Positions 9,861 to 15,067 of a stretch of DNA of 23,509 nucleotides are shown here, one piece after another. Made by a program: the position numbers and the translations under genes. Source of the DNA: a virus (taxonomy: Duplodnaviria > Heunggongvirae > Uroviricota > Caudoviricetes); the IMG/VR virus record IMGVR_UViG_2713896786_000017, one strand, 5' to 3'. Below the pieces are notes generated by a model. That model made no database searches. It was not told where the DNA came from and was given only the letters and a program-made list of their open reading frames with translations. Each line of letters opens with the position of its first letter. The first letter of the stretch is position 1.

Positions 9861-10175
9861 TCACTCTGGGAAAAATGACTGAATGTTCTTTCTTATCTCG
9901 CTAGTGCTGTGATTGCTTCCGGTGGCAGGTGCGCTGGCATATTTACTCTGAATATTATTCTTGGCTGGCGCAGCTCCTTCTTCCGGCCATTCGGCCAACC
10001 AATAGGCAAATGCAGGATCGCGTTTTATGAGTGCCAGCCCGGCCAGAAAGGCCGCGCGTTGCGCGCGGCTGCGTTCAGAGGCTGGCAGGCTGTCGAGGTA
10101 ATTACACGCCTCCCGTTCACTATTGACGGCGACTGGCTTCAGATAGAAACTTATCCGTCTGGTTGGTGTCGTCAT
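9861..10175 (-). CDS. parR: ParR-like DNA-binding adaptor of a type II (actin-type) partition system
   Basis: Internal Met of track ORF 9861..10310, 5 nt after the ParM-like stop, with AAGGAG overlapping that stop. MTTPTRRISFYLKPVAVNSEREACNYLDSLPASERSRAQRAAFLAGLALIKRDP parallels the N-terminal half of plasmid R1 ParR as recalled. Confidence 0.7.
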   Translation of the reverse strand: MTTPTRRISFYLKPVAVNSEREACNYLDSLPASERSRAQRAAFLAGLALIKRDPAFAYWLAEWPEEGAAPAKNNIQSKYASAPATGSNHSTSEIRKNIQSFFPE

Positions 10176-10179
10176 TGGT

Positions 10180-11139
10180 TTACTCCTTGTCCATTGCGTA
10201 CAGCCCATTAACCAGAGCAAACTGTGGCACCCCGTCCGCGATGAAAGTCGCATTAACTCCGCAGGCTTCGCGGATAGCGGGTGCCACAATCTCCGTCCCA
10301 CCACCGACAACCATCACCCGCCCGTAACCCGAAAAACCCGCCAGCGCGCGGATCACGCGTTGTTTCAGTGTTTCTTCCTTTTCACGAATAACCGCCATCA
10401 GGCTGGCGTAATGCGCGTCATTGTGGATGTGCTGGCGCAGCCAGGCTTCATCATGGCGATGTTCGATAATGGTATTGGCGATGTGGTGACTGGTGCGCAT
10501 ACCGTTAGTGGCCATCACCGACAGTACGGCATCGGCCATCAGAGAAACGCCTACGTGTGGATCGCAAAACACCTGGCTGATACCTGCCAGTTGCCCCTGA
10601 ACCTTTGCCACATCCAGCGTGGTTCCGCCCAAATCCACAATCAGCAGGGATTCAAACGGACTCATGTCAGCCAGTGCCTTAAAGCCAGCCGGAATGGATT
10701 CAGGCATAACCCGTACGTTACGGATAGTGAATGCTTCGCCGTTCTGGTACTCCACCGGGCGCATAACGTTCGCTTTTTTGCGGTTGATATTGGTCATGTC
10801 CGGCTGTGCGTTTGTGTCGAAATACTCGCTCAGTGGCAGGGTGACAACCACATCCACCTCCTGTGGTGTGATGCCTGATTTGACCAGCGCGTGATGAATG
10901 GCAATGACATTCACATCGCTGTATTGGTATTGCGTGTCGGTCGTCTGGACAAAGCGATCGCTGACCGGATCAAAACCATAGCGCACGCCATCAAGCATGT
11001 AGTTCGCGGGCTGCGTGCCACCGAACGGCGCAGACCATTCCGACTTGAAGCTGTTCGGGCTGATGGCGTTGCGGCGTTCGCCGTTCTCAGTCCATGCCAG
11101 CTTGATGTTGGTGGAGCCGTCGTCGATACAAATTTTCAT
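10180..11139 (-). CDS. parM: ParM/StbA-like actin-fold ATPase
   Basis: 319 aa track ORF. MKICIDDGSTNIKLAW, ISPNSFK, YQYSDVNVIAIHHAL, VMPESIPAGF, DLGGTTLDV and VVGGGTEIV parallel plasmid R1 ParM motifs as recalled. Confidence 0.85.
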   Translation of the reverse strand: MKICIDDGSTNIKLAWTENGERRNAISPNSFKSEWSAPFGGTQPANYMLDGVRYGFDPVSDRFVQTTDTQYQYSDVNVIAIHHALVKSGITPQEVDVVVTLPLSEYFDTNAQPDMTNINRKKANVMRPVEYQNGEAFTIRNVRVMPESIPAGFKALADMSPFESLLIVDLGGTTLDVAKVQGQLAGISQVFCDPHVGVSLMADAVLSVMATNGMRTSHHIANTIIEHRHDEAWLRQHIHNDAHYASLMAVIREKEETLKQRVIRALAGFSGYGRVMVVGGGTEIVAPAIREACGVNATFIADGVPQFALVNGLYAMDKE

Positions 11140-11215
11140 GTCGCTTTTCCTTATGTTGATTAATTAATCGTTTACGGGATTCTGAAATCCCGTTTTTGCC
11201 TGTTTTGTGCGCGCT
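11140..11215 (-). promoter_or_regulatory. parM upstream region: candidate promoter overlapping an 8 bp-stem hairpin (possible ParR operator / parC-like site)
   Basis: Minus-strand TTTCAG...17 nt...ATTAAT resembles a sigma70 -35/-10 pair and overlaps ACGGGATTTCAGAATCCCGT; AAGGAAAAG precedes the parM ATG. Confidence 0.4.
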
Positions 11216-14056
11216 TCATATATCGCTGCGCGTTTTTTGCTCATTTACGGGATTCGTGAGTCCCGTTTCTGTCTGTTTTTTGTTTCCACTGGTCAGGCCA
11301 CCCCGCAGCAGGTCTGCTTTGCGGCGGGCGCGTTCAGTGGTTTCACTGATTCTCTGTGCGTGCTCTGCGTCGCGGATGGCGCGCAGCATGTCAGAAAGCA
11401 CGGTAACGGGTGTTTTCATGGTGTTCTGGTCCTGCTGAAGTGTGGATGCCAGGCGTGCGGCGGCTTCAGGGTCTGATGCCCCCAGCTGTGTCAGATAGCT
11501 GGCGACCGGGTTATGGCGGATCTCCGTGCTGCTTACGCCATGATTACGGCTCAGGCGCTGCCAGAGCTGCGTGATTCGGCTGTCCGGGCGGGTATCCGGT
11601 TTGCGTACAATTTCAAATCCCTGCGGTGCAATGATGCTGCCGTCAACGTACAGACTGCCGCCCCGTAACAGGTGCTGCATCTGTTGTTCACCGATATGCA
11701 GGCCGAGAGATTCAGCAGACTCCCGCCATTCTTTAGCGAGTAATTCGTGGTTATCAGGCAAAGGCCGCTGCTGTTTGCGGCTCTGTGTCCAGCTCTGCAT
11801 TTCATCACTGCTGTTTTTTGCCTGTTTGTCACGAAGCGAACGCATCAGCGCCCGGCGTTCGTGCCGTTTCAGTGAGCGCATCCATTCATCCACATCAACG
11901 CCGTCAGGGAGCTGCGGCCACGGTGCTGGCCGTTCTTCCGGCTGTTCTGTCCCGTTGTTGTCCGTTTCCTGTACACGGGGACAGTTATTGCCACGAGTCC
12001 AAGGGGCGGCAGGGCCGCCCTGAAGGTCAAAACCATTTTCGCGGGCGCTGTCTTCCGCTTCCGGTTTGCGTCTTACCAGCTTCCAGTTATCCGGATGCGT
12101 GCATACGCGGGAAGACTCCCCAATGAGCGGCGACCAGATCCCGTAAATCTGTACGCTCTGTTCACCGTAATCGTTCAGCTCATCTGCGAGGTCGTAGGCG
12201 GTGCGAATCAGGTAGTCTTTGCGTGGAACAAGTACGCCACCCTGTTTCTCAATGTAGGTGGCAAAACATCCGGCATCAGCGGCAGCGAGTACCGCGTCCA
12301 TTGCGTCATCCTTCAGCCGTTGCGGGCCTTCCGGGTTGCGTGCCATCTGGCTGGCAAGGCGGCGCAGTTCACGCCACACCTGACGGGAGGGGATACCAAA
12401 GAACTGGAACTGGCGGACCCGGTGAAGGCGCGCCCAGCCGATGGCGCGTTCCACGCTCTCGGCCATTGATTTTCCGGTTTCGTGGTCAACGCGTGGCTTG
12501 CCCGTTTTCGGGTCGATGCCATCCACGGCGCGGCTGTCCAGGTTCTTTCCGATGTAGGTGGCGATGTAGCTGGTTGGTGTGCCTTTTGAGCCGTCGACAT
12601 ACTCCACCTTAAAGCGCGGAGTAATATCATTGCCCAGCTCGTGGCGGTCTTCCTGAATGGCAATATCGCGGGTGATGGCCACGATGCTGTCGATTTCTTC
12701 CGGATGAGCAAAGACCATCATATGCCAGTGCACAGTGCCGTCATGGTGAGGCTCCACCGTGCGGATGCCATACCAGCGCAGACCGTCGCGGTTCAGTTTT
12801 TTGCGGACCGCCGCAAAAAACGTGTTAACCAGGTAATCGCTGGAGTCGCGCATGGTGGCCCCGTTCCATTTAGGGTTCGGATGACCGTTCTCCGTTGTTG
12901 CGTGGTATTTTGACGGGCAGGTGACAGTCAGAAACACCGCTCTGTCGCCACGGGCTTCGGCCAGAAGTTCCAGTCCCTTCATGGTGGCCATCATTTCTGC
13001 CTTACGGTGAACCGGGTTACTTACTCCCGCGTAATACACTGTCTCGAGATCAATCGTGAACCCGTCTTCGTTTTCCAGCATGAAACTTTTCAGGAAATCG
13101 CGTGTTTTCTCGCGCTGTGCGCGAAACTCGCTTAACGCGTCCTGGCTCAGATAGGGTGATGTTTTTCTGGAAACCAGACAGGCGGCGCGGAGTTGTTCTT
13201 CTCTCCACTCGCAACGTAACAGCCACAGTTTGCGTTTCCACCATTCCGCACAGGTCAGGCGAAGGATTGCGCCCGGCAGCAGCTCCGTGTCTGGTTCGTT
13301 CCTCCGGTCTTTGTCTGTTGTCAGTGCGTCATAATGTGGAGGCATGGCGTGCAGGTGTAACGCCATGCGGGCCAGCATCTGATACGTCTTCAGCGTTACA
13401 TCCATGGTCAGCTCGCCATCGGTCGCGCCAAAGCCATCGCAGAGTTTTTCGAAGGTGCTGCTGAACATCGCCGCCGTCATGGTGGCCAGCGTCTGTATCT
13501 GGTGTTTGTTGAGCTGCGGCAGGTAAAGCAAATCGTCCAGGCGTTCGCGTCCGGCAAGGGAGCGATAACCAGGTGTCAGCCAGCGCCCGTCAGTGCGATC
13601 CAGACGTTCGAATATTTTGCGCAGGGTTCCGCGTGCATAGCGTTCCGCCTGCCAGCTCTTTTTGCCTTTCTGACGATCGGCTTCCTGCTTCTTGCGCAGG
13701 AAAGAGAGGTGGCGGCTCAGAGGTTCTCGCAGATAAACGGGAAGCGCCTTCAGTGTGGCAAAGGCACGGGCTACCGGGTCTTGTTCTGTTGCCCGGCGCT
13801 TACTGATGATGCTCTGTGCCAGCTTCTCACGCTGTCCGGCTTCCTCAAGGGATGCCATGAGTTTTTTACCCATGGCGGATTGTGCGAAAAAGGCTTCTTT
13901 CTTCGCTTCCTGTTCTTCCTGTGCCCTTTTGTCCGCCTCAAGGTAGTAACGGATGGCGCGTTGCAGGTCGGTTTCAGTTTCCTGCCTGTGCTCCGTAAAT
14001 CTGGCCGGATCAATAGCTGGTCGTGGTTCATTCCAGCTCCATGCAAACGCACTCAT
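11216..14056 (-). CDS. A: Rolling-circle replication initiation protein (P2 gpA-like HUH endonuclease)
   Basis: Track ORF 11216..14083 (955 aa). HUH motif in GTVHWHMMVFAHPEE and paired tyrosines in TSYIATYIGKNL. The ATG at 14056 overlaps the upstream stop (ATGA) and is the likelier start; 14083 is a GTG. Confidence 0.85.
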   Translation of the reverse strand: MSAFAWSWNEPRPAIDPARFTEHRQETETDLQRAIRYYLEADKRAQEEQEAKKEAFFAQSAMGKKLMASLEEAGQREKLAQSIISKRRATEQDPVARAFATLKALPVYLREPLSRHLSFLRKKQEADRQKGKKSWQAERYARGTLRKIFERLDRTDGRWLTPGYRSLAGRERLDDLLYLPQLNKHQIQTLATMTAAMFSSTFEKLCDGFGATDGELTMDVTLKTYQMLARMALHLHAMPPHYDALTTDKDRRNEPDTELLPGAILRLTCAEWWKRKLWLLRCEWREEQLRAACLVSRKTSPYLSQDALSEFRAQREKTRDFLKSFMLENEDGFTIDLETVYYAGVSNPVHRKAEMMATMKGLELLAEARGDRAVFLTVTCPSKYHATTENGHPNPKWNGATMRDSSDYLVNTFFAAVRKKLNRDGLRWYGIRTVEPHHDGTVHWHMMVFAHPEEIDSIVAITRDIAIQEDRHELGNDITPRFKVEYVDGSKGTPTSYIATYIGKNLDSRAVDGIDPKTGKPRVDHETGKSMAESVERAIGWARLHRVRQFQFFGIPSRQVWRELRRLASQMARNPEGPQRLKDDAMDAVLAAADAGCFATYIEKQGGVLVPRKDYLIRTAYDLADELNDYGEQSVQIYGIWSPLIGESSRVCTHPDNWKLVRRKPEAEDSARENGFDLQGGPAAPWTRGNNCPRVQETDNNGTEQPEERPAPWPQLPDGVDVDEWMRSLKRHERRALMRSLRDKQAKNSSDEMQSWTQSRKQQRPLPDNHELLAKEWRESAESLGLHIGEQQMQHLLRGGSLYVDGSIIAPQGFEIVRKPDTRPDSRITQLWQRLSRNHGVSSTEIRHNPVASYLTQLGASDPEAAARLASTLQQDQNTMKTPVTVLSDMLRAIRDAEHAQRISETTERARRKADLLRGGLTSGNKKQTETGLTNPVNEQKTRSDI

Positions 14057-14442
14057 GGCTGGTATCCCGTCACGCGCTGCCACTCCTGCGAGAAGAGGGC
14101 GGAAAGGCGGTTAAATTCAGCGGTGTATTCACTCAGCGAGGCACACCCGCCAGCAGTGCGATGCGCCAGCATTGCTGCAAATACGGAGGCCGGGGAGTCG
14201 TAATACGCCAGCAGTGATTCGCCGTGCGGTGTCAGGCAGTGCAACGCCAGTCCGTGTGGTGTGAAGTCCACGCGGTAGCAGTCGTCTACTGTGAAATAAA
14301 GGGTGTCTGCATTCTCCGGTTTTGTGGTGCGTGCTCTGTTGTCACGACCACGGATGTAGAGATCAAATAACCCCTGAAGAACGGGAGCCAGACGGGTGTC
14401 CTGTGTGCGCACCCATCTTGTGAAGTCATGAGCGTCAATCAT
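14053..14442 (-). CDS. Hypothetical early protein (129 aa) directly upstream of and coupled to gene A
   Basis: Track ORF with ATG start; position is that of the small orfs preceding A in P2-like phages. Confidence 0.5.
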   Translation of the reverse strand: MIDAHDFTRWVRTQDTRLAPVLQGLFDLYIRGRDNRARTTKPENADTLYFTVDDCYRVDFTPHGLALHCLTPHGESLLAYYDSPASVFAAMLAHRTAGGCASLSEYTAEFNRLSALFSQEWQRVTGYQP

Positions 14443-14745: not shown

Positions 14746-15067
14746 GGTGTGGCCTCGTGTATAGTAAGTTTTGAAAACTCACCATCCAGAGGTGGAAAAC
14801 TCGGGGTGGTGAGACGTACAGGGTTTCCACAACCGGCTATACACGAACCCGGCCCGACCAAAGTCGGCCCCATACGCCCCACCATAATTCGTGTGCGAAA
14901 AAGACGTGGCGATGCGGTACGCACAAAAAAACCGCTGGCGCGGTTGTGCGCGTGTATAGTCAGCGGGGTGGAAATCCCGGCACCCGTTTTATGAGGTGCA
15001 GCGGAAATGTAACCTGACTGATTGCGGCATGGCAAGCGGTTTTTTTGTGTGTGCATGTTCTGGTTTC

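Follow-up and report, generated by a model that had tools for sequence, protein, structure and literature searches.

In the 23,509-nt stretch of viral DNA IMGVR_UViG_2713896786_000017 (the window, meaning that stretch at its full length), which is a P88-like prophage (Xuanwuvirus, P2-like), we have analyzed a duplicated hairpin element located at the junction of the replication endonuclease gene A and the partition gene parM. It is highly likely that this element constitutes a conserved cis region of the parMR cassette, and that the last ~22 codons of A are a read-through into it. The duplicated element is real, it is exclusive to parMR and co-inherited with it independently of the upstream gene and of the reading frame, and its layout parallels that of the parC centromere of plasmid R1. 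A ParR operator or centromere-like site, which the preliminary description of this DNA had offered as a side suggestion, is the function favoured by the evidence, and the element probably acts as the parC of the cassette, that is, as a ParR-bound centromere and possibly as an operator. ParR binding, centromere activity and a regulatory effect are what we infer from the comparisons presented here.

The repeat search yielded a direct repeat of 42 nt with two copies, at 11168-11209 and 11241-11282 on the minus strand, which share 34 of their 42 positions (81%) and show a start-to-start spacing of 73 nt. The chance of at least 34 matches in 42 is 5e-14 per position pair, with 1.4e-5 expected for the whole window, and 30 shuffles of the 700-nt region gave best 42-mer matches of 22-27, versus the 34 observed. 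Each copy contains one 20-nt palindrome with the pattern ACGGGAT-N6-ATCCCGT, named HP1 in the proximal copy (11174-11193, ACGGGATTTCAGAATCCCGT) and HP2 in the distal copy (11247-11266, ACGGGACTCACGAATCCCGT; population consensus ACGGGATTCACAAATCCCGT). Even with up to three mismatches allowed, only two sites in the 23.5-kb window correspond to this pattern, namely the two copies. The distal copy consists of the A-rich left flank CAAAAAACAGACAGAA followed by HP2 and AAATGA, and is translated in this phage as the last codons of A. The proximal copy, with the left flank CACAAAACAGGCAAAA followed by HP1 and AAACGA, is intergenic; the 28 nt that separate it from the parM start codon make up the parM leader with its Shine-Dalgarno motif TTAATTAATCAACATAAGGAAAAGCGAC (11140-11167, minus strand; diversity, pi, 0.027). 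A core hairpin with a G+C stem (GCGC..GCGC) appears between the copies at 11209-11231 and encloses the stop codon of A (11216-11218). The element as a whole measures 115 bp, or 143 bp counted to the ATG, and comprises two repeat blocks around a 31-bp core. The A open reading frame (ORF) ends in ...KKQTETGLTNPVNEQKTRSDI before its stop codon, and translation of related loci with identical DNA (frame 0) gives KQAKTGFQNPVND followed by a stop for the proximal copy in the corresponding frame. Hence, the preliminary description was accurate as to the element itself: the minus-strand sequences it gave are exact, repeat and palindrome are far beyond chance, and the proximal copy does translate in frame to a peptide similar to the A tail.

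The association of the element with parMR was examined in a sample of 203 loci with 105 distinct 263-nt upstream haplotypes. Both copies were present in 104 of the 105 haplotypes, with a spacing of 73 nt in 100 of them and of 72 or 74 nt in the other four. The sole exception (L122, IMGVR_UViG_2874920711_000009) holds the proximal copy only, ~60 nt upstream of parM and beside rearranged DNA. Its upstream sequence is unrelated, and a stretch of 14 kb yielded neither HP2 nor an A 3' end, which points to a prophage that has been rearranged or degraded. A scan of IMG/VR with the exact pattern AAACGGGAT-N6-ATCCCGTAAA returned 245 matches, and all 240 that could be evaluated were situated upstream of a parM start at a distance of less than 250 nt; 20 matches that seemed to deviate are variants of the parM start region. 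Because of the fidelity of the pair across haplotypes and the occurrence of the IMG/VR matches at parM, the element belongs specifically to the parMR module, where it is maintained, and is not a dispersed repeat or a scar undergoing decay. Dispersed palindromes like the repetitive extragenic palindromic (REP) sequences were also considered and rejected, with just two copies in the window and every viral-contig match at parM.

The region was found in 1371 of 5426 complete E. coli genomes, and prophages of O157:H7 strains are among the carriers of the cassette. A ParM scan of species-representative genomes detected three loci only (E. albertii, Salmonella and a 'Vagococcus' contig), so that the clade is too narrow for a deep comparison. 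The last of these (L102, NZ_JBQPOM010000071.1, labelled Vagococcus sp., a Gram-positive assembly) carries this E. coli-type parM at 98% identity together with the full repeat region, and is most likely an assembly contamination. In the plasmid and phage collections there were no intermediate relatives; plasmid ParR homologues are at most 45% identical, and the only other phage ParM in those collections is that of D6 (47.5%).

The distal copy appears behind five different upstream contexts, where it is read in two reading frames or left untranslated, and its left edge is the boundary of homology in four of them. Decisive evidence came from partial matches in E. coli genomes. In E. coli O169:H41 (L002), A is represented by a different allele whose end lies 400 bp further upstream; next comes a 155-aa ORF with CxxC motifs, which runs into the distal copy and ends in ...KQTETGFTNPVNEQKTRRDI before its stop; here homology to the window begins at ~11280, the left edge of the distal repeat. 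This Zn-ribbon-like ORF reads the distal copy in the same frame as A both in L002 and in L041, while in L165 a member of the same ORF family reads HP2 in another frame and stops at CCG TAA. The contexts beyond L002 were obtained by way of ParR variants and a scan for the motif. The distal copy is preceded by a 31-aa ORF in L146 and by a shorter A allele of 879 aa in L091, joined between LQQD and KKQTETG. In E. marmotae prophages (L095 and L096), A stops at a TAA located 6 nt before HP2 and the distal copy is untranslated. The 155-aa ORF (L002 3598-4065; also L041 and L165) shows two CxxC pairs, is situated in some E. coli prophages after a different A allele and ahead of the par cassette, and has no Pfam match; in RefSeq only its last 66 nt are annotated, as a 'DNA replication protein' pseudogene.

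Comparison with loci devoid of par points in the same direction. Alleles of A that are 92-96% identical over the last ~270 nt and adjoin other cargo (L003-L005) have no hairpin, and they diverge at ~11310-11332 (L003 and L005) or just before the would-be start of HP2 (L004). Where A reads into the module, its ~22 codons of cassette DNA (11219-11282) carry 15 nonsynonymous versus 5 synonymous variants, as compared with 50 versus 158 in parM; by this measure the 22-codon tail is free of constraint at the protein level and evolves neutrally as protein. In view of the varied contexts, the par-less A alleles and the tail variants, the supposed A terminus is cassette DNA, and the proximal copy is no relic of A. 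A tail belonging to A whatever the cargo would be expected in L003-L005, which lack it, and would not be read by ORFs other than A, as it is. Two observations were made on the part of A that precedes the tail: its ~78 C-terminal codons (11307-11539) are weakly constrained, with 42 nonsynonymous versus 35 synonymous variants, and the A allele of L091 is devoid of about 55-70 residues in the 3' part of the gene. Both indicate that the end of A seems tolerant to change.

These data bear directly on the explanation that the preliminary description had put forward, namely that the pair is a recombination scar in which the proximal copy is a vestigial, orphaned A C-terminus left when parMR was joined to a different A allele. 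The similarity of the peptide that the proximal copy would encode to the A tail speaks for such a scar, and so does the position of the 3' end of A at the left border of a recombination hotspot, as it is presented in the passages of PMC9122126 on this locus. However, ORFs other than A also lead into the tail, which moreover occurs in a second frame and without translation; the hairpin is missing altogether from closely related A alleles that adjoin other cargo; and both copies are kept at fixed spacing in nearly all haplotypes as well as in relatives with 83% parM identity, so that we reject the scar as very improbable. The proposal that cargo boundaries coincide with the element held in part, inasmuch as the left edge of the distal copy is where homology between contexts begins. 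An origin-related role of the element had been raised as well. As a nick site or single-strand initiation hairpin for protein A, the element would agree with the rolling-circle replication of P2-type phages, with the vicinity of the A 3' end and with the hairpin potential. Nevertheless, the element is inherited together with parMR rather than with A, the par-less A alleles described above lack it, and it stands behind different A alleles and even behind a non-A ORF 400 bp past A, all of which makes an origin function hardly credible. An unverified P2 ori nick-site motif had no match, a result that is uninformative because of the uncertainty of the motif.

The two genes that accompany the element belong to a known type of partition system. 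The gene parM (10180-11139, minus strand) encodes an actin-like segregation ATPase of 319 aa with Pfam matches to StbA_N (2.9e-82) and ParM_N (5.6e-68), whose product matches R1 ParM (PDB 1mwk) with an E-value of 3e-92. Next to it, parR (9861-10175, minus strand) encodes a ribbon-helix-helix-type centromere-binding adaptor of 104 aa with a match to Plasmid_stab_B (PF10784, 3.8e-25) and a weak one to pB171 StbB/ParR (2jd3). As judged from these matches, the cassette is identified as a bona fide R1-type ParMRC system. As in a parC, the repeats adjoin parM, with parM and parR in one cassette, and the whole is inherited as one mobile module, as seen in the IMG/VR matches, the haplotypes and the five upstream contexts.

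The characterized parC of R1 is intrinsically curved and ParR loads on each of its blocks (PMC2241845). Read from R100, this region spans 159 bp; its 39-bp core, which holds the promoter, is flanked by two blocks, each with five 11-bp iterons. The prophage element resembles it in its position immediately upstream of a homologous parM associated with a Plasmid_stab_B ParR, in the arrangement of two repeat blocks around a core, in its end just before a similar Shine-Dalgarno sequence and in the leader motif CATAAGGA, common to both. The length is also comparable (115-143 bp versus 159 bp in R1), and the sense strand is A-rich with a phasing of ~10.5 bp: AAAY motifs in the element recur every 10.25-10.5 bp, with a power reached by 6-20 of 2000 shuffles, and R1 parC exhibits AA periodicity at 10.5. 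Instead of the ten 11-bp direct iterons of R1, the prophage element holds 42-nt units, each around a 20-bp palindrome. Its core, unlike that of R1, which carries the par promoter, is a G+C hairpin whose loop is not conserved and in which no promoter is recognizable. A further difference is that the upstream gene extends over the distal block. The four half-sites are arranged as a global dyad (ACGGGATTC on the outside, ACGGGATTT on the inside), the complementarity between copies being at least as good as that within copies in all of 56 haplotypes and better in 30 of them.

Among plasmids, the closest parM is that of the IncL/M (pOXA-48-type) group, with ~66% nucleotide identity. Two repeat blocks also occur upstream of that parM (L006 and L007, 2355-2472), and their block spacing is likewise 73 bp. 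In contrast with the prophage element, these blocks are built of 10-bp direct iterons (CTGTATTTTT) that are T-rich on the sense strand, there are no palindromes in common, and the sequences are not alignable. Further upstream of the iterons, IncL/M plasmids have a separate perfect 10-bp inverted repeat (GTCAGACCGT/ACGGTCTGAC). A clear set of short direct iterons such as those of R1 or IncL/M was not seen in the prophage element.

Within the cassette, conservation was found to be distributed unevenly. Among close relatives the mean diversity of the two palindromes (pi 0.051 and 0.098) and of the core (0.052) is not below that of parM third codon positions (0.053), with the variation concentrated at few positions and the GGA/TCC centres of the arms invariant in both palindromes. 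The distal copy has invariant A-rich flanks (pi 0-0.013), and TTAATTAA in the leader is invariant as well. In L091, the most diverged locus (83% nucleotide identity in parM), HP2, HP1 and the core stem retain their arms and all three loops are replaced, the core loop being ACTGTATCCGGT versus GCGATATATGAAG; the core pairs 61-83 and 66-79 show changes on both sides. On the protein side, the N-terminal strand of ParR, RRISFYLKP, and most of its DNA-binding domain are invariant in 16 variants with 50-98% identity, and the linker is hypervariable. The match between invariant GGA/TCC arms with A-rich flanks and an invariant ParR beta-strand counts for a ParR site. As a separate observation, parR shows pi values of 0.15-0.27 at all three codon positions among near-identical cassettes, as compared with 0.003-0.05 for parM, and this variation falls in the linker, between the invariant N-terminal DNA-binding domain and a conserved C-terminal tail, KKNIQxFFPE.

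According to the mechanism that we propose for a parC-like element, ParR would attach as dimers to the two 20-bp palindromes and probably to their helically phased A-tract flanks too. Separated by seven helical turns, the palindromes would lie on the same face of bent DNA, and ParM filaments would then capture the partition complex so formed. The ParR complex could additionally throttle transcription entering parM. As for the upstream gene, the A frame of this lineage, having no stop before the cassette, continues for 22 codons into the distal repeat and the core until it meets a TGA.

Several points weigh against a parC function. The mean diversity of the palindromes (pi 0.05-0.10) is not below that of parM third positions, and constraint is visible just at specific positions and in the distant comparison. 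The element is not the iteron array of characterized ParR sites and possesses two palindromes only; its 'iteron-like' phasing partly follows from the 73-nt duplication itself (73 = 7 x 10.4). No sigma-70 promoter was found at threshold in or near the core, the best lenient candidates scoring 7-8 of 12 and not being conserved, although consensus scans can miss real promoters; R1 parC, by contrast, holds the par promoter, and the core loop is not conserved here. Conserved stems, variable loops and a few double changes fit a fold of RNA or single-stranded DNA equally well. A variant of the parC function whose build differs from all characterized type II systems, in which the four half-sites act as one ~95-bp global dyad made of the two palindromes and an apical G+C hairpin, is unlikely. 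Such a centromere might extrude a cruciform or fold as a long hairpin, and ParR would see two looped dyad sites and not an iteron array; with the distal site inside the 3' end of A, ParR occupancy could also gate transcription from A to parMR. If so, the expression of the replication gene would be coupled to the assembly of the partition complex in a phage usually regarded as purely integrative.

Apart from parC, the element could be thought to work as a nucleic acid structure, in RNA or in displaced single-stranded DNA, that acts on the A-parM polycistronic transcript through processing, stability, translational coupling or attenuation. On the sense strand it would fold into three hairpins or into one long imperfect hairpin of ~29 bp. 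Each copy alone gives -9 to -12.7 kcal/mol with modest z-scores of about -1.8 to -2.3, and the 146-nt region reaches -33 to -39 kcal/mol (z -4.2 to -4.6), well below shuffles. The RNAalifold consensus is the long hairpin, in which HP2-left pairs with HP1-right and HP2-right with HP1-left, with the core at the tip, and six pairs are changed on both sides. The stems kept and loops replaced in L091, the inter-copy complementarity in all 56 haplotypes and the likely transcription of the region from upstream, as no promoter was found, also agree with a fold. Nonetheless, the covariation term of RNAalifold is only -0.68, and the covariation in both fold models exceeds shuffles only marginally and is within what relatedness alone can give: the local three-hairpin model, with 91.7% of cells paired, has its covariation reached by 49 of 500 shuffles, and the long-range model, with 93.8% paired, by 25 of 500, its both-side changes being reached by 39 of 500. 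The apparent compensatory pairs HP2 T20C/HP1 A1G and HP2 G3A/HP1 C18T involve common polymorphisms and are not significant, and the pair HP2 T15C/HP1 A6G of E. marmotae is the only lineage-specific one. Departures of the G.U type and of the A.C type are equally common (39 versus 27, without strand bias), so that neither strand is favoured. In addition, the hairpins are not followed by a U-tract on the sense strand, no Rfam 15 family matches the locus even at E<=10, and palindromic protein sites produce the same pattern of conserved stems and variable loops. Taken together, a function as an RNA or single-strand fold is unlikely.

Two further explanations were weighed. Two identical dyad sites seven helical turns apart represent a classic repressor or looping layout, and the palindromes could serve as operators for another protein, a regulator of the phage or a factor of the host, by which read-through from A into the cargo is controlled. 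But the sites move with parMR through different phage backgrounds, different A alleles included, they are never seen without parM, and the shared block encodes no DNA-binding protein other than ParR, so that operators for another protein appear improbable, somewhat more so than an RNA fold. Alternatively, the hairpins might be intrinsic terminators of the plus strand that stop antisense transcription through parM toward A, for instance late transcription past Q and cos. Both copies are indeed called terminator-like on the plus strand, where a stem-loop of -10 to -12.7 kcal/mol is followed by a T-run, as in genuine intrinsic terminators. They differ from these, though, in occupying the wrong strand for the flanking genes and in being duplicated at fixed helical phasing and tied to parM: no gene of the plus strand has its end in the vicinity, and every cargo gene between Q and A is encoded by the minus strand. 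The scan gave three sites versus 1.4 expected, the stem-proximal T-run is polymorphic (sense AAAAA to GAAAG, AAGAG or AAAAC) in a way that terminators tolerate poorly, and A-richness of the sense strand is also a feature of R1 parC. On the sense strand, AAAUGAGC and AAACGAUU follow the stems in place of a U-tract. A terminator function is accordingly more improbable still, though less remote than a scar or an origin.

With regard to the genomic setting, the region shares 97-99% identity with Escherichia phage P88 and with further phages of Xuanwuvirus (Peduoviridae, P2-like). The genes follow the order A, parM, parR and small ORFs on the minus strand, with the portal gene Q next on the plus strand, and the cargo site is the gpA-gpQ hotspot known in P2-like phages. 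According to Rousset et al. 2022 (PMC9122126), in its passages on this hotspot in E. coli P2-like phages, a 'putative plasmid partitioning system' occupies it in about one quarter of these phages; this cargo, placed there between A and Q, corresponds to the cassette studied here. Those passages on the partition cargo cover its genes only and make no mention of a cis site, and our literature searches for a described cis site or repeats of prophage parMR found none. The replication endonuclease gene A (11216-14038, minus strand; Pfam Phage_GPA 3.2e-130) encodes ~940 aa by comparison with P88. The program-made ORF has 955 aa and starts at a GTG at 14083 (11216-14083, minus strand); since P88 and related records annotate 940 aa, the start of A in the window is probably at ~14038. 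In the early region upstream of A, two Rfam matches at gathering level were obtained on the minus strand, a C4 antisense RNA at 14802-14889 (76.5 bits) and the Hfq-binding RNA isrK at 14925-14999 (63.5 bits).

About one quarter of E. coli P2-like prophages carry the parMR cassette, a segregation machine of plasmid type in an integrating phage, going by the account of the cargo just cited. The 115-bp fragment described here offers a concrete handle on this cassette and makes it directly testable as a partition system. The element also shows precisely where the module has its left border in the gpA-gpQ hotspot, and it calls for a correction of annotation, as the last ~22 residues of the 'replication endonuclease' very likely represent read-through into regulatory DNA and do not belong to the enzyme. 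Confirmation of the palindromic layout would widen the range of designs known for type II centromeres.

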